A stretch of 64,000 bases of DNA from Shigella phage Shf125875, in sequence record KM407600, one strand, 5' to 3'. Made by a program: the position numbers and the translations under genes. Within the stretch, counting starts at the first letter, position 1, and each line of letters starts with the position of its first letter. Positions 28,355 to 36,391 of the stretch are shown here, in pieces. Under the pieces are notes generated by a model. That model was not told the origin of the DNA and made no database searches. It saw only the letters and a list, made by a program, of their open reading frames with translations.

Positions 28355-28385
28355 GATAGTATCACACATCCATGTGTTTGTAAAC
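28355..28385 (-). promoter_or_regulatory. Early sigma70-type promoter (same family)
   Basis: Minus-strand GTTTACAAACACATGGATGTGTGATACTATCATCC. Confidence 0.5.
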
Positions 28386-30472
28386 TATCCTTGGACAAAT
28401 TTAAACGGAACTGATTCTAAATCCATTAAAGATGCTAACAATTTCAAACCTTTAGGTGCACTAGTTTTTTCTACAAATGAGGAGAACGATACCGGCTCAT
28501 CCGATTCGATTTCACCCGTCATAGCAACCACCTCGCCTGTTTCCATGAGAACATCACCATCGTAAATGACGGCTTCATCCAACTGGTCTGAGGACATGAC
28601 TTCAGCTTGAATAAATTTAAGGTTGGATTCTAAACCTGCACCGGTGTCAGATGACGCATCTGTAATTTTATTTATCTGCAAGAGAATGCCTCTAGGCAAA
28701 ATAATTTCTTGCTCATTAGGGTGATTACTCAACTGTCCTGGATAAATCACGTTAACTTTATGGGCACCGTCAATAGCCCATCCAACGTTAACACGGATTT
28801 GTTCTGGCGCATGCATAGCTGTTCTTACTTGACTAGGAGAAATAGTAACACCTTCGTCATTATTGTCAATGTTAAGCTCTTTGCGAACTTCTTCAGGAGC
28901 AAGTCCAAGGGCAACGTTCTCTTTAAACCCACCGAAAATAATAGGAGCTAGTGAAGTGGAAACATAGTTTCTGAAGTAGAATACTTTATTTTTAACCATT
29001 GCTTCGTAAATAGGCATTCTGATAGACTGAGCTCTATATAACGTTAGTCCTTCAGGTAAACGGTCTCCATTTAAAAACGCCGAATCAAGACCATCAATAG
29101 CGCGTTTAACTTCATCTTCATCTGCAACATCGTAAAAATCTGGTTTATAACGACCTAACAACATATTATTGATATCTATATATGCAGAAGAGGCATATTC
29201 ACGAATAGCTCGTTTTTCAGCAACAGAGTATTGTTTAGGGTCCCGATTCATTGTTATATTAAAGGTGCCTCTAGCCGATTCTCGTGCATAAGTATACATC
29301 ACATTAGACAAGAACGCTGATTTACGTTGTTTCCAAGTTCTTTCAGATACTTCAGCTAAAACGTCGTCAGGCAGTTGGAAATTATCACGTCTAAAATCTT
29401 CAAACCATTCGTCTTTAATAGAGTCTGCAATTTCATTTGCAGCTTCAACAAAAGCAGCTAATGCTTTAACAGATGTTGTTTTTTCGGTTTTAATTTTCTT
29501 AGCAAACTTTTCTAAAGTCGGCTTAATAACACTACCATAAGAAACTTCATCAGCAAATTTAAAGGATTCATCAATACGATTATAAATCTTATTTTCGATA
29601 TCAGCAACTAAAGTGCCTTTTGCTGTGGACGATGCTTGGGCTAGTACGATTTCATATGCTTCAGGAAGTAATTCGGCCGTAGCTGGGCCACTAACTTCTT
29701 TAGCAGAATTTTCGTATTTCTGGAATAACTCACCTTCTTGTCGGTCAGCTTCTAAAGATTGACTTGCTGCAATAGCACGACGAGAAATTTTAGTACGAGC
29801 AATAACAGGCTTATCTTTACGTTTTTCTTCTACAGCAGCAATAGAACCAGCGATAGCCGTTTCTTTGGTGACCTTTTCGCCGGTCTTTTTACTCACATAA
29901 ACTTCGCCAACATCAGAATCTACTTTCGTATACAACTCTGTGTTAATGTTAGGGATGCCTTTAATATCTTCAATGTTGGCATTTTTACGAACCATCATCA
30001 CATAGGTGTGTTTACCTGTGAATTGATACATTGCCGACAATACTTTAAAACGACCACCGGTTTTAGTAGAAACTAAACGAGCAAGAAGAGTTTGAAGCTG
30101 TTGTCCACGTCCTTTCAATTTCTTGGTAGGGAATCGGAACAGAACTGCATCCATACGAAGAGCTTTAACCTGTTCATATACTGTATTGAAAATAGTGTTG
30201 ATTGCATCAATAGGAGCAGGACCAAGGCCATTTTTCAATTCAGCGAGATTACCCTTTTCAGATAGACTCATAATAACAACATGAGCGTATTTGTCGCCAA
30301 GTTTAACTTGTTTTACGGCATCGCCTTCAGAAAGATAAGAGAATAAGCGAACTACGATGTTTGTATCGATATCACCAATTTTCCAGACTTGTGGAACTTT
30401 AGCTTTAGGGTTCAAATTGACGACAGGAAGACTGCCTTCAGATTCAAACACTTCGTTTATTTGTTCAGACAT
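28385..30472 (-). CDS. alt: Alt ADP-ribosyltransferase (head-packaged, modifies host RNA polymerase)
   Basis: 695 aa (T4 Alt 682 aa); position between 54 and 30. Confidence 0.8.
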   Translation of the reverse strand: MSEQINEVFESEGSLPVVNLNPKAKVPQVWKIGDIDTNIVVRLFSYLSEGDAVKQVKLGDKYAHVVIMSLSEKGNLAELKNGLGPAPIDAINTIFNTVYEQVKALRMDAVLFRFPTKKLKGRGQQLQTLLARLVSTKTGGRFKVLSAMYQFTGKHTYVMMVRKNANIEDIKGIPNINTELYTKVDSDVGEVYVSKKTGEKVTKETAIAGSIAAVEEKRKDKPVIARTKISRRAIAASQSLEADRQEGELFQKYENSAKEVSGPATAELLPEAYEIVLAQASSTAKGTLVADIENKIYNRIDESFKFADEVSYGSVIKPTLEKFAKKIKTEKTTSVKALAAFVEAANEIADSIKDEWFEDFRRDNFQLPDDVLAEVSERTWKQRKSAFLSNVMYTYARESARGTFNITMNRDPKQYSVAEKRAIREYASSAYIDINNMLLGRYKPDFYDVADEDEVKRAIDGLDSAFLNGDRLPEGLTLYRAQSIRMPIYEAMVKNKVFYFRNYVSTSLAPIIFGGFKENVALGLAPEEVRKELNIDNNDEGVTISPSQVRTAMHAPEQIRVNVGWAIDGAHKVNVIYPGQLSNHPNEQEIILPRGILLQINKITDASSDTGAGLESNLKFIQAEVMSSDQLDEAVIYDGDVLMETGEVVAMTGEIESDEPVSFSSFVEKTSAPKGLKLLASLMDLESVPFKFVQG

Positions 30473-30512
30473 AGTGTTTTCCTTTTAGTAATAATTTATA
30501 TTTATGCCAAAA

Positions 30513-30528
30513 AGAGCCCGAAGGCTCT
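30513..30528 (-). terminator. UUCG-tetraloop hairpin
   Basis: Minus-strand AGAGCC-TTCG-GGCTCT followed by TTTTTGG. Confidence 0.45.
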
Positions 30529-30737
30529 TAATCCACAATCGGGAGCAAAGTACGATAAACTTCAAAATTAGGGCCTTTTTCGTACCCATTAACGTTATCT
30601 ACGAAAACCCGATACGAATTTTCATTAGGAAAATCTAATATAATCTGAGAGCAAGAGGTGGAAACATCTCCACCATCCTTCTTAGCTACAATAACTGTTT
30701 CTAAATAAGCTTTCATTATAAACCTGTCTGGGACCAC
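30528..30737 (-). CDS. Hypothetical small protein
   Basis: 69 aa ORF; hairpin terminator at its 3' end. Confidence 0.4.
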   Translation of the reverse strand: MVPDRFIMKAYLETVIVAKKDGGDVSTSCSQIILDFPNENSYRVFVDNVNGYEKGPNFEVYRTLLPIVD

Positions 30738-32209
30738 GGTCCAAATACGTCTTCAAACGAATCCGCTTCTGTTTTATCAAAACGGAACCCTTTAATAATT
30801 GGAAGGAAAATACCTACAGTACCTTCACGGCCTTTAGAATGAACCCAACCATTACATTCACAATCAGCGATACGTCCAATTAATTTACCTTCACGAGCTT
30901 CGGCCATTAATCGTTCACGGTCTAAATCATGACGCTCGTCTAAAGGAATAAGAACCTTTACACCGTCAACTGTTTTATGAGTTGTATCTTTAAAACCTGA
31001 ACCACAATCGGTTGTAATACGACGACAACGTGATACGAGTTCGACACCACCTAATTTGTTAGGGTCTTTAGAGTGTTCGTAGTATCCTACAACTTCTAAA
31101 GCGATATCAATAACTTCTTTAAATTTAATTAGATTCTTAGAGCGTTTGTTTTCCCAATATGAATCACGGTTTTTAAGGATAATACCTTCAAGACCTTGGT
31201 CAACATATTTTTTATAAACCACTTTAGCTTCGTCAAGATTATGAACTAACTGATTTTCAATTGGCTCAATTCGTTTAAAGCCTTCAGCCATATTTTCAAG
31301 AGCAGCAAAACGAACATCATATTTCTGACCTTTAATTTTGCCATCAGAATAGACTTCATCTAAAGGAACATAGTCCCAGGCTTGAAGAACCATACCTTCC
31401 GCTTCTTTAGGAGAAATAGTCCCTTGAAGAGATTTATTTGCTAAACCATTTGAAGTGCTACGGTCTGCAACTTGTACTTCTTCGGATTCTTCATTATCAC
31501 CAAATAAGAACGACAGGTCATTTCCTGAGCTCACAGCCTTTTTAATATCAAATGAATGATAAACTAATTCACCGTCGATTAAAACCCCATTAGGGTGTCT
31601 TTCACGAGCTTCTTTAGTCATTTCCATTAGTTCATCCGCTAATAGAGTAAGACCATGATATTCATTACCAGCACGAGAAAAGAATTGAACACCATCATCG
31701 CGAACTTCAGCGAAACAACGAGCACCATCGGCTTTTAATTGAGCAAATGCAGGCCATTTAATATTTTTAGTAATCAATTTCTCATCATATGCAGATGCTA
31801 ACATCTGTGGTTGCAATTGAATAAGTCCAGGCCACACCTTATTCGCGATAGACACTGAAGCACCTACTTCAAGGTCGCGCATCATTACACGACGAAGGAC
31901 TTCTACATCGTCAGGTTTACCGTCAGCGATATAACCCATGAGCTCTTTAATTGCAGCATTACCAGTGAGTTTACGAGTGGCTAATGTGAACTCAATAAAA
32001 TCCAACATGTCATCTAATTCAAGAAGACCATACGCTTGAGACCTTTCACCTGGTCCTGGCCATTTCTTAATATAATACTGAATGCCACGTGCATACGTTA
32101 AACGATACACACGTTCAAGTAATTTGTTGTCCTTATTTTTCTTAAGGATTTCCTGTTTTGTTTTAGTAGAACCGATCGCAGCTATTTGGTTTAAAATATC
32201 TAAAATCAT
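30716..32209 (-). CDS. 30: ATP-dependent DNA ligase gp30
   Basis: 497 aa; adenylation motif KADGARC; extensive similarity to T4 ligase as recalled. Confidence 0.95.
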   Translation of the reverse strand: MILDILNQIAAIGSTKTKQEILKKNKDNKLLERVYRLTYARGIQYYIKKWPGPGERSQAYGLLELDDMLDFIEFTLATRKLTGNAAIKELMGYIADGKPDDVEVLRRVMMRDLEVGASVSIANKVWPGLIQLQPQMLASAYDEKLITKNIKWPAFAQLKADGARCFAEVRDDGVQFFSRAGNEYHGLTLLADELMEMTKEARERHPNGVLIDGELVYHSFDIKKAVSSGNDLSFLFGDNEESEEVQVADRSTSNGLANKSLQGTISPKEAEGMVLQAWDYVPLDEVYSDGKIKGQKYDVRFAALENMAEGFKRIEPIENQLVHNLDEAKVVYKKYVDQGLEGIILKNRDSYWENKRSKNLIKFKEVIDIALEVVGYYEHSKDPNKLGGVELVSRCRRITTDCGSGFKDTTHKTVDGVKVLIPLDERHDLDRERLMAEAREGKLIGRIADCECNGWVHSKGREGTVGIFLPIIKGFRFDKTEADSFEDVFGPWSQTGL

Positions 32210-32475
32210 TTGATATCCTCGATTTTGGTTACGGTTCTATTATAAGCCACTTCATCTAGAAGCGATTTCAGCGTTTTCTGATAAGTGGTAATCCATTTAC
32301 CGAGTCCTTCAACATAATATTCTGAAATGTAGATGAACCCTTGTTCAACACACTCTTTAAATATTTCTGCGTCTTTTACTGAACGAAACACCGGCCAGTC
32401 TCGAAAGAACATGTTAACATGACCGTAGTCACGTGTGGTGTTTTTGCCATCTGTAATATCATGAACTACAAACAT
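32206..32475 (-). CDS. Hypothetical protein (30.1-like)
   Basis: 89 aa ORF, overlaps ligase start. Confidence 0.5.
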   Translation of the reverse strand: MFVVHDITDGKNTTRDYGHVNMFFRDWPVFRSVKDAEIFKECVEQGFIYISEYYVEGLGKWITTYQKTLKSLLDEVAYNRTVTKIEDIK

Positions 32476-32484
32476 AATTAGCCC

Positions 32485-33300
32485 TTAACAATTTATAGAC
32501 CAAGTCCATTTAGACGAATCTAAAGGAAAGTTTTGAATCGTCCACCATGGCTGCATATCGGTTGGTCCTGGAGTTCGCCAGGTGTACGGATTCGACGGAC
32601 CGCCAATTTGATTAGGCCATGCACCTGGACTTGTTGCACCAGATTCTTTAAGCAAATCTGCCAATCGTTTTAAAAGGTCTTCACGATCTGAATCTGAATT
32701 ATGCTTTGGCGGAACTAAACGAGATTCAATATCATCCCATGTGTGTACACGTTGTGCAGTGCGAGGAATATCATCACGTTCACCACGAGCCAACCAATAA
32801 ATCGGTACATTAAGAATTTCTGCCGCATGGTCACAATGATGAGCTAAATCGTCAACGTAACAAATTACGTTATATTTTGTTTTAGCTAGTTCGAATAATT
32901 GTTCCTTTGAAGAATCATGACCACACATCATTACTTCAGAGAAAGCGCCTGGGAACAAAGCATTCAAATTAAATTGTCTATTCAATCGAGCATCAATTGA
33001 ATCACCTAACGCCGTTACGGCTACAAAATTATAGTCTTCTTTTAGTTTATTGATAACTCGAAGAGCATCCGAATAAGGCGCTAAGTAACGAATAAAATCA
33101 GAGCGATTATATTTTTCTATTAATTGTTTACCAAGGTTATCGTCGGTATTGAATAGTTTACCAGGAGAAATAAATTTTTCGTCCTGAATCATTTTTAAAA
33201 TATGTTCTAATGGAAGATTATATTTTTGGGCAAAATAAGGAAGTCCCGATTGCCAGCTTAAACATACACCATCAATATCAGTCAAAATAGTAGGCTTCAT
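32485..33300 (-). CDS. Hypothetical protein with HAD-like motif I (30.2-like)
   Basis: 271 aa; N-terminal ILTDIDGV resembles the HAD hydrolase DxDx(T/V) motif. Confidence 0.55.
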   Translation of the reverse strand: MKPTILTDIDGVCLSWQSGLPYFAQKYNLPLEHILKMIQDEKFISPGKLFNTDDNLGKQLIEKYNRSDFIRYLAPYSDALRVINKLKEDYNFVAVTALGDSIDARLNRQFNLNALFPGAFSEVMMCGHDSSKEQLFELAKTKYNVICYVDDLAHHCDHAAEILNVPIYWLARGERDDIPRTAQRVHTWDDIESRLVPPKHNSDSDREDLLKRLADLLKESGATSPGAWPNQIGGPSNPYTWRTPGPTDMQPWWTIQNFPLDSSKWTWSINC

Positions 33301-33764
33301 AAAGAGTCTCTTAATAGGTTTAACACATCAATAAATTCAGCTTCAGTTAGTATTGTATCATCTTTTGTTAGGTGGCTGGCCATGCTATGCTTCAAAATTT
33401 TTCCTTTAGAGGCTTGTAAGGCATCGCGAAAACCCTTGTTTTGGATCGCGGCTTCAAAATATGCATTTGTGTATAATTCTTTCCACGCTTCAGAGTATCT
33501 TGAAAATGGAACTCCTAACCAGAAGAGAGTCCCATGGTCCTGAGCTCTTGCATAAGACCTTCCAGCTTGCTGTGCAGCCAATCCAGATAACCCAAATATA
33601 CGTCTTTGTTGTTCAACATTTTTCACCTTACATCCTTGGAGAAATCCTTCAAGACCTCCGAATTGAATACCGTCCATAACAAAAGGCCATTGAGCAAAGT
33701 TACTTAGTGCACATGACGGCCACTTGAAATTGCTTCTTATCTCTAACTCAGACATCTTTAACAC
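33297..33764 (-). CDS. NADAR-domain (YbiA-like) protein, 30.3-like
   Basis: 155 aa; SNFAQWPFVMDGIQF resembles E. coli YbiA SNFAAWPIKVDGKTW. Confidence 0.7.
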   Translation of the reverse strand: MLKMSELEIRSNFKWPSCALSNFAQWPFVMDGIQFGGLEGFLQGCKVKNVEQQRRIFGLSGLAAQQAGRSYARAQDHGTLFWLGVPFSRYSEAWKELYTNAYFEAAIQNKGFRDALQASKGKILKHSMASHLTKDDTILTEAEFIDVLNLLRDSL

Positions 33765-33966
33765 TTATAATTTCAACATCAGCCCAATGGCCGTATCCTG
33801 GTATACGGTCTTCGATAGATAAATTTCCGTCATTTTTAGGCATTTTAATTGACGTAACGTATGGTTCTAAACGGTTTTCTGCATAATATGGAAAAACGTC
33901 CGTCACACGATAAGTAACTTCAATCATTTCTGTACCAAACAATTTCTGGATTAATTTTTTAAGCAT
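33748..33966 (-). CDS. Hypothetical protein
   Basis: 72 aa ORF in 30.x cluster. Confidence 0.4.
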   Translation of the reverse strand: MLKKLIQKLFGTEMIEVTYRVTDVFPYYAENRLEPYVTSIKMPKNDGNLSIEDRIPGYGHWADVEIISVKDV

Positions 33967-33970
33967 TTCA

Positions 33971-34258
33971 TTAGAACCTCATCTGAAAACCATGTGATTT
34001 AACATTACCGCCGCCAATATCAGAAATGTTAATTTCACTTGCAATCGAAGGATCGATGTCAATTTCACGATTAAGTTTAGTGATAGCTAAAGTATCATGT
34101 CCATTTACTGTACGAAACTCCAAAGGACATACTACGTTGACATAGTGTTTAATTGACTCGCTAGTAGGTTGCAAATGGGCCGGAAGGTCTTTAGGTGCTT
34201 TAGAGAAAACAACTTCACAAAAGTTTTTGCGGGTATCAAAATAAGTGGTCATAAACAT
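33971..34258 (-). CDS. Hypothetical protein
   Basis: 95 aa ORF in 30.x cluster. Confidence 0.45.
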   Translation of the reverse strand: MFMTTYFDTRKNFCEVVFSKAPKDLPAHLQPTSESIKHYVNVVCPLEFRTVNGHDTLAITKLNREIDIDPSIASEINISDIGGGNVKSHGFQMRF

Positions 34259-34264
34259 AATATT

Positions 34265-34280
34265 TTCCTCAATTGGGAGC
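34265..34280 (-). terminator. UUCG-tetraloop hairpin
   Basis: Minus-strand GGGAGC-TTCG-GCTCCC between two 30.x ORFs. Confidence 0.45.
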
Positions 34281-34297
34281 CGAAGCTCCCAGTTAAA

Positions 34298-34663
34298 TTA
34301 GATATCGAATTCATTAAGAACTACATCAAAGATTGCTTCGAGATGTTCAGGTTTAGCTCGGTTACTCAGGATATGACGAATCCAAGTTTTAACCAAAAGT
34401 TTACGATTAACACCGTTCCAGCAAGGATGAGTACCTAAATCACGCTGACGGAAATCATCATCTAATGCAATTTTAAAATTTGAACCTTCCATCGTGATTG
34501 AAACCGTGATGCCATTTTCAAATCGCATATAAACGTAATTAGGAGTCATGCACTGTTCGATTTCACAAACTGTACCGTTTTTGTGTTTCCATAAGCAAAT
34601 AACTTCAGAAGAACCAGCGATACCGTTAGAAACATATTTACGTTCGAAGTTGATGTAGTTCAT
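34298..34663 (-). CDS. Hypothetical protein
   Basis: 121 aa ORF with its own early-type promoter and downstream UUCG hairpin. Confidence 0.5.
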   Translation of the reverse strand: MNYINFERKYVSNGIAGSSEVICLWKHKNGTVCEIEQCMTPNYVYMRFENGITVSITMEGSNFKIALDDDFRQRDLGTHPCWNGVNRKLLVKTWIRHILSNRAKPEHLEAIFDVVLNEFDI

Positions 34664-34702
34664 TTTATTCTCCAGATGTTTAAGTTGTTTGTTGGTACAG
34701 GT

Positions 34703-34733
34703 CTATAATAACATAACCTGTACCAAAGTAAAC
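34703..34733 (-). promoter_or_regulatory. Early sigma70-type promoter (same family)
   Basis: Minus-strand AGTTTACTTTGGTACAGGTTATGTTATTATAGAC. Confidence 0.45.
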
Positions 34734-34737
34734 TGTT

Positions 34738-35106
34738 TTATGCAACTTTAATCCAATTGTCTAAATTTAAAACACCTTTGGCTTTCATTTTTTCGATCAG
34801 GTTATCTGCTGTAATGCGTCCATTTTGATACCATGTAACATCTTCAGAGTAACCAGTTTCTTCGTCAACATATGTTTCTGAACGAATTTTACCTGTAATA
34901 ATAGTTTTTAATTCGTATGTGTCACCTGTGAAAAAGTTTGCTAACACAATTTTCCAAGAGAAATCATTTGAAGGACCTTCAGGAGTTGTACAACCTACGA
35001 TCTCAAATTGCTCTTTGTATAACATCCACTGGAATTCTTTAATTTCGATAGCTTTATAACCGTCGTGGTCTTTACATTTGATGTATGAGTTCAGGTTGAT
35101 TTTCAT
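34738..35106 (-). CDS. Hypothetical protein
   Basis: 122 aa ORF with its own early-type promoter. Confidence 0.5.
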   Translation of the reverse strand: MKINLNSYIKCKDHDGYKAIEIKEFQWMLYKEQFEIVGCTTPEGPSNDFSWKIVLANFFTGDTYELKTIITGKIRSETYVDEETGYSEDVTWYQNGRITADNLIEKMKAKGVLNLDNWIKVA

Positions 35107-35147
35107 TTTGTTCTCCAGTTTGTTTTATTGATTAGGTGGTACAAGTC

Positions 35148-35177
35148 TATAGTAACACATCCTACAGGAGAGTAAAC
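35148..35177 (-). promoter_or_regulatory. Early sigma70-type promoter (same family)
   Basis: Minus-strand TGTTTACTCTCCTGTAGGATGTGTTACTATAGAC. Confidence 0.5.
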
Positions 35178-35214
35178 ATTTTTTTTAAACTTTTTCTGCC
35201 CTAAACGCACAAAA

Positions 35215-35232
35215 GGGAGACCGAAGTCTCCC
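35215..35232 (-). terminator. UUCG-tetraloop hairpin terminator
   Basis: Minus-strand GGGAGAC-TTCG-GTCTCCC followed by TTTTGTG. Confidence 0.6.
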
Positions 35233-35237
35233 TAAAA

Positions 35238-35417
35238 TTATGCAACAACCTTTCCAAAACGAGAAGCATCATCTCGAAGAACTGCACGTGCTCTGCGCAT
35301 GATCTTCTCAACTGTTTGATTAATACGAGAGTTCGACCCACGCTTGTATCCAGCGCGTTTAGAGGTACCATCAACTTTCTTTTCAACTGCTTTCTTTGCT
35401 TTAGCTTGTTTTGCCAT
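35238..35417 (-). CDS. Small basic 59 aa protein (below ORF-track threshold)
   Basis: My own translation MAKQAKAKKAVEKKVDGTSKRAGYKRGSNSRINQTVEKIMRRARAVLRDDASRFGKVVA; stop 5 nt before a UUCG hairpin terminator. Confidence 0.4.
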   Translation of the reverse strand: MAKQAKAKKAVEKKVDGTSKRAGYKRGSNSRINQTVEKIMRRARAVLRDDASRFGKVVA

Positions 35418-35685
35418 TATAAATTCTCTTTAAATGAAAATGCAGGACTTATTGACATTGCCTGCGCAAGCCCTCAAGGGGAACATAGGTTTTGGATATT
35501 TAACGACAGGATAACCATAAACCCGTCATCATACCAACCACGACTTAGACAGATAACCTTTTTCTGACGCGTGATAGTACAAAATACATTCAAGAGGTAC
35601 ACCGTAAAATTGTCGGGGCGGTACTTCTAAAACATACCGATTCGCAAATCGATAATCAGACAATTCGACGGCTCCTCGATTTAAC

Positions 35686-35934
35686 TTACTTCAGGGTAAT
35701 AACAAAATGACGAACTGCTTTACGAGCTGCTGAAGCCAGAGGCTTAGCATATTTCAATTCATCTTTCTGAGCCAGTACATCACGAAGATCGGCCTGTGCT
35801 GGATTCAGATGTTTGAAATACTGTAAGATTTCCAGTGCTTCGGCTTCAACATCAATTGACGCGCCGTAGTTTTCGTGACCGTTATTCCATGCATGGCGTT
35901 GCAGTTCAAGAGCGTGTTGTAATTGTTTAATCAT
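35686..35934 (-). CDS. rIII: rIII lysis inhibition accessory protein
   Basis: 82 aa, same as T4 rIII; N-terminus MIKQLQHALELQR matches as recalled. Confidence 0.85.
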   Translation of the reverse strand: MIKQLQHALELQRHAWNNGHENYGASIDVEAEALEILQYFKHLNPAQADLRDVLAQKDELKYAKPLASAARKAVRHFVITLK

Positions 35935-36050
35935 TTTAAATTCTCAATTCGAGATAATATTTAGTAGCCACGTTCGTCTGAATTTCACCTTCTTTCGACA
36001 GGTCTCTCAGTTGTAGGCTACCGCTTAGAAGAGTGTTCTCTTCATATAGT

Positions 36051-36058
36051 TATTTATA
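36051..36058 (-). promoter_or_regulatory. Candidate late promoter for rIII
   Basis: Minus-strand TATAAATAACTAT between gene 31 stop and rIII. Confidence 0.4.
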
Positions 36059-36391
36059 TCACTTATAAAGACACGGAATAGCTTTATAGTGGCATGTTAC
36101 GAATTTCTGTTTAATTTCTTTAGGTTGTTTAAGACCTAAAGCCACAAATGGATGTGGAACATTTCGAATTTGTCCAACTGGTAGTGGAGTCAAATCACCG
36201 ACTTCAACAAAACCTTCAGGAACATCAGGACCTACAGAATGAACTACACATAGTTCAGGAACTTCACCTTGAACACGTTTACCAATCACAAGTCCTGATT
36301 CGGTAACTTCTTCATCACCTGCTTGAGCGGGTTCAGAAACCAGAATGACATATTCACCAACAGCACGAATTGGGAGTTGTACTTCAGACAT
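36059..36391 (-). CDS. 31: gp31 co-chaperonin (GroES analogue)
   Basis: 110 aa (T4 111 aa); MotA-type middle promoter upstream. Confidence 0.85.

Follow-up and report, generated by a model that had tools for sequence, protein, structure and literature searches.

Does a gene string in which an Alt ADP-ribosyltransferase, a NADAR-domain protein and a HAD-like protein lie close together constitute a module for ADP-ribosylation, or are these genes neighbors by inheritance? The question is raised by positions 28385-33764 of a 64,000-nucleotide stretch of Shigella phage Shf125875 (sequence record KM407600), which in its whole length is referred to here as the window. A first-pass annotation, made from the letters alone, had assigned the genes to a single module. 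It had also offered the NADAR protein as a candidate counter-defense factor against DarT-type toxins or as a regulator of phage-driven ADP-ribosylation. That all three genes are present, and on the minus strand, is confirmed by their open reading frames (ORFs), by Pfam and PHROG matches and by motif:

33297-33755, minus strand: adfN (gene 30.3), an intact allele encoding a 152-amino-acid NADAR-fold protein, assigned by PF08010 and by orthology to T4 gp30.3
32485-33300, minus strand: gene 30.2, encoding a 271-amino-acid C1-capped, phosphatase-like protein of the HAD superfamily with a DIDGV motif
28385-30472, minus strand: alt, encoding a 695-amino-acid Alt-type ADP-ribosyltransferase (PF03496, phrog_802)

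The explanation preferred here, with a probability of about 0.9 for it as a whole, is that the NADAR gene is an intact orthologue of the T4 anti-DarT gene adfN, that alt and gp30.2 are independent of it, and that the genes most probably lie together because a T4-type gene order was inherited, not because they form a functional module.

The counter-defense role proposed for the NADAR protein proves to have been published already, for a T4 protein that is 96% identical to it (PMC11825919, PMC11125620, bioRxiv 10.1101/2025.11.20.689424). That T4 protein, gp30.3, now bears the name AdfN, for anti-DarT factor NADAR (Johannesman et al., Nat Commun 2025, PMC11825919). T4 and T2 no longer plate on DarTG1 hosts once adfN is deleted, expression of T4 adfN rescues RB69, and purified AdfN strips ADP-ribose from DarT1-modified DNA; the substitutions E36A and K43A and an RB69-like C-terminal truncation impair the protein, and the thymidine-specific DarTG2 is not countered by it (PMC11825919). 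In vitro, phage NADAR removes ADP-ribose from DNA guanine-specifically and leaves thymidine-linked ADP-ribose untouched (PMC11125620). A T4 transposon screen (HIDEN-SEQ), cited here for the part of its table that covers genes 26 to cd.4, concurs: insertions in 30.3 are lost on the DarTG1 host (log2 fold change, log2FC, -7.25), and on plain K-12 adfN is not essential (bioRxiv 10.1101/2025.11.20.689424). T4 has further anti-DarT genes, adfA (gene 61.2) and adfM (gene tk.4); in the same table adfA scores a log2FC of -0.34 (bioRxiv 10.1101/2025.11.20.689424). Both probably lie outside the window, because it is taken to span the T4-equivalent structural-gene to tail-fiber region; this is judged from an unannotated ORF list in which neither gene was searched for.

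The function, mechanism and catalytic residues of AdfN, and the frameshift in RB69, are already known from work published in 2024-2025. What is added here is that the allele of Shf125875 is intact, unlike that of RB69, that Alt and gp30.2 are unneeded for the known function, and that gp30.2 is a bona fide HAD protein. Orthology, intactness, fold and catalytic residues come from the present analysis, activity and phenotype from the published experiments with T4. The practical use lies in host-range prediction and the choice of phages; no new biology is added.

The ORF delimited mechanically as 33297-33764 (155 amino acids) opens at a GTG at 33764, but the true start is most likely the ATG at 33755, giving a 152-residue product that is collinear with T4 gp30.3 (also 152 residues), with a start that overlaps the stop of 30.4. 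The gene is the third beyond the ligase gene (30.1, 30.2, 30.3) and not, as first stated, the second. Its product matches PF08010 (Phage_30_3) with E 4e-69 and 231 bits against a cut-off of 36. The YbiA/NADAR signature attributed to it holds by profile and by fold; at the sequence level it does not, the family being Phage_30_3 and not PF08719. The 152-residue protein has no direct Pfam or NCBIfam match to PF08719 (NADAR), even at E 10, and as a single sequence it finds nothing among the PDB sequences. One homologue (P0179) bears both Pfam labels, and when a profile of 36 homologues is searched against the PDB sequences, E. coli YbiA ranks first (E 0.0025, spanning the E...K motif). The AlphaFold model has a predicted local distance difference test score (pLDDT) of 92.7 and a predicted template-modeling score (pTM) of 0.88, with a helix at 138-151. 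Submitted to Foldseek against the PDB, it retrieves at a probability of at least 0.96 only YbiA (2b3w; E 3.7e-4, template-modeling score 0.69), PnNADAR (8bau) and the DarT1-associated NADAR of G. lovleyi (8bat), the next-best match having E 3.5. The fold predicted for the 30.3 protein is thus the NADAR alpha+beta fold, with core helices flanked by small beta-hairpins. Since the Pfam and single-sequence searches fail, the relationship is visible only by profile and fold.

The residues expected of an active enzyme are in place. The window protein has E36, K43 and H123, none of which varies across the 36 homologues; H123 sits in an LKHS motif. The likeness to T4 AdfN accordingly extends from gene position (30.4-30.3-30.2-30.1-30-alt.1-alt) and length to these three residues and to the C-terminal helix. 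With the cellular NADARs (the DarG1/DarT1-associated proteins of E. coli C7 and G. lovleyi, 8bat; PnNADAR, 8bau; YbiA, 2b3w) the window protein has the fold in common, together with Glu and Lys in the E-x(6)-K motif (E88 and K95 in E. coli C7); sequence identity is 16-19%, and the N-terminal extension is absent. The guanine-ADP-ribose chemistry of these proteins is that of phage AdfN (PMC11543638, PMC11125620). Where the last strand of the cellular proteins carries Asp (DarG1 type) or Glu (YbiA type), the window protein has His, the replacement described for phage NADARs (PMC11125620, PMC11543638), and no toxin gene adjoins adfN as it does the DarT1-associated NADAR antitoxins.

Conservation argues in the same direction. 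The copy in phage F2 is 100% identical to the window protein, and the ratio of nonsynonymous to synonymous substitution rates (dN/dS) against T4 is 0.057, indicating strong purifying selection. Nearly all copies are full-length: of the 1509 phage records found by tblastn, 1502 cover at least 80% of the AdfN query. Some natural T-even phages have a shortened gp30.3 (86-126 residues) or one fused to 30.7, 30.8 or another family (homologues P0102-P0106, P0111-P0116 and P0150). By sequence, then, the counter-defense gene would occasionally be degraded in nature, as in RB69, but rarely, to judge from tblastn coverage (7 of the 1509 records). The equivalent of T4 30.3', an out-of-frame ORF that overlaps adfN (about 33392-33619, minus strand), meets a stop at codon 35 in the window and in RB69; since it is interrupted in both, it is probably not a real gene.

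RB69 offers a comparison. It is DarTG1-sensitive, an extra T at nucleotide 411 truncating its AdfN by 15 residues (PMC11825919). The insertion follows ...ATACTAAC and leads to an early stop with loss of the last helix; the window is without it. In a three-way DNA alignment of window, RB69 and T4, the window frame is of the T4 type and its protein ends ...EAEFIDVLNLLRDSL. Read from this alignment, the adfN allele of Shf125875 is intact, with its C-terminal helix encoded. Over the common 137 amino acids it is 96% identical to RB69 gp30.3, and it lies in a near-identical genomic background (most neighbors have 97-100% protein identity; alt, alt.1, 30.4, 30.8 and rIII are lower). Because its copy is intact and that of RB69 is frameshifted, Shf125875 is predicted to resist DarTG1 hosts, unlike RB69. 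The Mosigviruses Bas46 and Bas47 are reportedly DarTG1-resistant when tested. By analogy with the T4 orthologue, the allele should hydrolyze guanine-ADP-ribose and provide counter-defense against DarTG1. In such a scheme host DarT1 would ADP-ribosylate guanines in replicating phage DNA, and AdfN would cleave the guanine-ADP-ribose N-glycosidic bond by means of E36, K43 and the phage-clade H123; replicable DNA would thereby be restored, allowing the phage to plate on DarTG1 hosts where RB69 does not.

That alt and gene 30.2 belong to the same undertaking is a separate proposition. Alt itself is what the first-pass annotation took it to be, an Alt-type ADP-ribosyltransferase: it matches PF03496 (ADPrib_exo_Tox; E 1.7e-27, 96.5 bits, cut-off 23.4) and, over its full length, the Alt-like family phrog_802. 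Its R-STS-ExE catalytic motif (R480, S505-T506-S507, E587-Q-E589) is intact in alignment with T4 Alt. The two genes are syntenic and homologous over their full length, with a late-promoter motif upstream of both; identity is 42% (dN 0.57), which places alt among the fastest-evolving genes of the region. Between alt and its upstream neighbor lies the following segment:

30473-30527, minus strand: alt.1-alt intergenic region, with the hairpin AAGAGCC-UUCG-GGCUCUU, a T-run and then a late-promoter-like CATAAATATAAAT

The hairpin folds with -10.6 kcal/mol (z -2.06), and T4 alt is preceded by the same arrangement, in which the late-promoter TATAAATA is exact. Because hairpin and T-run, followed by the late-promoter-like CATAAATATAAAT, precede it, alt appears to form a late transcription unit apart from the 30.x genes. 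Full-length homology to T4 Alt and the late-promoter-like motif make it likely, by analogy, that Alt is a late product, is packaged into virions and modifies RNA polymerase among other host proteins. The known targets of Alt are protein arginines.

The distribution of neighbors was examined in a survey of 40 non-redundant loci with a gp30.3-type NADAR, drawn from IMG/VR and GenBank; clustering of 80 IMG/VR loci had left 40. The screen for partners comprised synteny in six divergent phages, a regular expression for HAD motifs, and jackhmmer with the NT5C-like protein of Vibrio phage D525. No neighbor family reaches a majority of the 40 loci. In 7 of them a gp30.2-family gene, and in 6 a ligase gene, is at most 2 kb from NADAR, 33 have no HAD-motif protein within 3 kb, and ADP-ribosyltransferases are not among the families that recur in at least three loci. 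Within 4 kb of NADAR, no ADP-ribosyltransferase is annotated in four divergent phages. NADAR has other neighbors, and no linkage to gp30.2, in Aeromonas 44RR2.8t, Salmonella Melville and Ralstonia RsoM2USA. The phenotypes diverge as well: in the covered part of the T4 transposon table, insertions on the DarTG1 host are neutral in alt (log2FC -0.01) and in 30.2 (-0.12 over 71 sites, p 0.61) (bioRxiv 10.1101/2025.11.20.689424), in contrast to those in 30.3; alt and 30.2 are judged dispensable there. Neither a linkage beyond synteny nor a shared phenotype is thus supported for Alt, NADAR and HAD. The single module is not supported, given a hairpin and late motif that set alt apart, a strong depletion confined to 30.3, and a neighborhood that dissolves outside the close relatives of T4.

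Some observations nevertheless weigh against so simple an account. Rescue of cells from DarT toxicity, which had been proposed as a check of the NADAR gene, fails with T4 AdfN: unlike the DarT1-associated antitoxins, it does not protect uninfected cells from DarT1, and it rescues non-T-even phages weakly (PMC11825919). For these two reasons full activity appears to need an additional phage (T-even) factor, which in Shf125875 is assumed to be present. The window protein differs from T4 AdfN by six conservative substitutions (R11K, R74H, P89E, V120I, I125M and G128H) and is encoded by a Mosigvirus genome, its activity being presumed from T4. The transposon table was assigned to DarTG1 by its content and position, not by its header. 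T-even phages, Acinetobacter phages and certain further T4-like phages have NADAR and HAD genes joined by a 4-nucleotide overlap or a 2-nucleotide gap (a 2-nucleotide gap in Acinetobacter phage LemonAid and a 4-nucleotide overlap at a further locus of the survey, L022). In the KVP40-like Vibrio phage D525 (4001-4959) an NT5C-family HAD protein (PF06941, E 6e-11) follows NADAR directly, again with a 4-nucleotide overlap. Because the adjacency recurs, and in D525 with a different HAD protein, NADAR and HAD may be functionally linked under conditions other than DarTG1. The D525 pair lies far from ligase and alt, and the D525 genome also has a gp30.2-like gene, at a distance of about 100 kb.

These adjacencies lend a certain color to a genuine module, in which gp30.2, translationally coupled to AdfN, would process the released ADP-ribose or nucleotide product or would itself be the T-even factor that T4 AdfN requires. 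The start of 30.2 overlaps the stop of adfN (ATGA) in the window, T4 and RB69, and the NADAR and gp30.2 families, each present in about 1450-1500 phage records, differ little in their distribution over genera. The proposal is highly improbable all the same, given the undepleted 30.2 insertions, the preponderance of loci without a HAD-motif protein and the phages in which the two genes are unlinked. Moreover, gp30.2 diverges far faster (73% identity to T4, against 96% for AdfN), and ADP-ribose, a pyrophosphate diester, is by general enzymology an atypical substrate for HAD phosphomonoesterases. As a general link, gp30.2 was rejected as a partner of AdfN on synteny, the 40 loci, the HAD regular expression and jackhmmer searches and the T4 transposon data. 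T-even phages and T4-like phages of Acinetobacter have NADAR close to alt, which could likewise be taken to mean that NADAR modulates or undoes the ADP-ribosylation carried out by the phage's Alt, ModA or ModB, as an eraser for these writers. An earlier comparative study did describe T4-like NADARs as early genes encoded near ADP-ribosyltransferases (PMC9503650). The chance of this is close to negligible. The tested NADARs, that of T4 included, act on guanine-ADP-ribose in DNA and not on thymidine; because Alt modifies protein arginines, the second role that had been offered for NADAR, as a regulator of phage-driven ADP-ribosylation, is not supported. The neutrality of alt insertions on DarTG1, the dispensability of adfN on plain K-12 in the same part of the table, the separate late-type unit of alt and the want of ADP-ribosyltransferases, both in the annotation near NADAR in four divergent phages and among the recurrent neighbor families of the 40 loci, all argue alike.

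Two further proposals leave the anti-DarT1 activity of AdfN untouched and concern its compass or its accessories. Its main substrates might lie beyond DarT1-modified DNA, among soluble ADP-ribose-derived immune signals or ADP-ribosylated RNA, with DarTG1 as one of several targets. A role against soluble ADP-ribose derivatives has been proposed on contextual grounds (PMC9503650), and the AdfN authors suggest action on other defenses that ADP-ribosylate DNA or RNA (PMC11825919). The strong purifying selection, and the presence of the family in about 1500 phage records with hosts of many genera, would fit. What has been demonstrated, in phenotype and in activity, relates to guanine-ADP-ribose on DNA only, and the proposal is regarded as unlikely. 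It is very doubtful that the T-even factor is encoded in the same gene string by the 72-residue gp30.4 rather than by the HAD protein gp30.2. The stop of 30.4 overlaps the adfN start, and T4 30.4 shows a log2FC of -1.79 on the DarTG1 host (adjusted p 0.014), the sole other significant depletion between genes 26 and cd.4. That depletion is probably a polar effect of the insertions on downstream adfN. Furthermore, gp30.4 is 53% identical between T4 and Shf125875, though T4 AdfN works fully in RB69 infections; no gp30.4-like small protein lies upstream of NADAR in the distant phages checked. An intact AdfN acting on DarT1-modified DNA, with alt and gp30.2 as independent neighbors, therefore stays the preferred explanation. 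The present analysis speaks against gp30.2, and likewise against Alt, as the AdfN-potentiating factor.

The first-pass annotation was right to suspect a HAD protein in the 271-residue ORF of gene 30.2 with its DIDGV motif; its tentative placing of that protein in one ADP-ribosylation context with NADAR and Alt is not supported. A Rossmannoid HAD core with a cap domain carries all four HAD motifs (I, DxDx(T/V); II, S/T; III, K; IV, DD); D8, D10, G11, K132, D150 and D151 are invariant in 29 homologues, and T96 is nearly so (Ser in two). gp30.2 is thus a genuine C1-capped, phosphatase-like HAD protein. The Rossmannoid core, the helical cap after motif I and the four catalytic motifs resemble those of C1-capped subfamily I, exemplified by the 5'(3')-deoxyribonucleotidases 2jao and 3bwv and by beta-phosphoglucomutase-like phosphatases. 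A literature search on the function of gp30.2 found nothing relevant. Its C-terminal 50-75 residues (32485-32650) are rich in Trp and Pro and hypervariable from phage to phage, and the model predicts disorder there (pLDDT below 50); a GIEYLxxxPT-like C-terminal motif, found in many relatives including that of T4, is lacking in the window and RB69 versions.

The setting of these genes is that of a T-even phage. The Mosigvirus (RB69-like) coliphages UGJNEcP1, ATK47 and PhAPEC2 are about 98% identical to the window in DNA; because of this identity, Shf125875 is classed by sequence as an RB69-like Mosigvirus, and the stretch under discussion as the conserved alt-30-30.x region. RB69 is the type member of the genus. 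The interval is a tightly packed run of genes, all on the minus strand, in the order (from 28385 upward) alt, alt.1, 30, 30.1, 30.2, 30.3, 30.4, 30.6, 30.7, 30.8, 30.9, rIII and 31, which is identical in the annotated T4 and RB69 records. In Pfam and PHROG scans most genes match T4 families (ADPrib_exo_Tox, Phage_blade, DNA_ligase_A_M, DUF3045, Phage_30_3, Phage_T4_Gp30_7 and Phage_30_8). The ligase gene is situated between alt and the 30.x genes. The neighbors of the three principal genes are:

30528-30716, minus strand: alt.1, 62 amino acids by alignment to T4 and RB69
extending to a GTG at 30737, minus strand: mechanical ORF of alt.1, 69 amino acids
30716-32209, minus strand: gene 30, ATP-dependent DNA ligase (PF01068, E 1.5e-26; phrog_114), 67% amino acid identity to T4 gp30
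32206-32475, minus strand: gene 30.1
33748-33966, minus strand: gene 30.4, 72 amino acids, phrog_2042, 53% identity to T4 gp30.4

Against T4, the region 28385-36391 is a mosaic of divergence in which the unit is the single gene. Synonymous divergence (dS) is moderate (0.2-0.9) for adfN (0.55), 30.6, 30.7, 30.9, rIII and gene 31, and saturated (1.3-2.9) for alt, alt.1, ligase, 30.1, 30.2, 30.4 and 30.8. The pattern puts adfN in a recently shared patch amid much older neighbors and suggests recombinational exchange between T-even genera; exchange of this kind was obtained in the laboratory in the AdfN study (PMC11825919). Against RB69, with which most flanking genes are 97-100% identical, alt.1 (30528-30716) reaches 81% and gp30.8 (34738-35106) 56%, the latter having 44% identity to its T4 counterpart; these two would be local hypervariable spots.

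A generic scan for sigma-70 promoters and terminators stays at the level of shuffled sequence (28 promoter-like sites against 26 expected) and is uninformative, which leaves direct reading of the region upstream of alt as the only informative approach there. Over the whole window, the T4 late-promoter motif TATAAATA occurs in 18 copies against 7.4 expected from shuffles, a number reached in 0 of 100 shuffles, and most copies are on the structural-gene strand; excess and strand bias are consistent with a T4-type late transcription program. In the RB69 reference sequence, alt (NC_004928, 5310-7397) has a pair of -1/+1 indels about 170 nucleotides apart that scrambles Alt from residue 472 to 528 and with it the catalytic R480 and S505-T-S507; the frame is intact in the window and in T4. 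Either the old reference contains a sequencing error, or a second ADP-ribosylation-related gene is inactivated in RB69.

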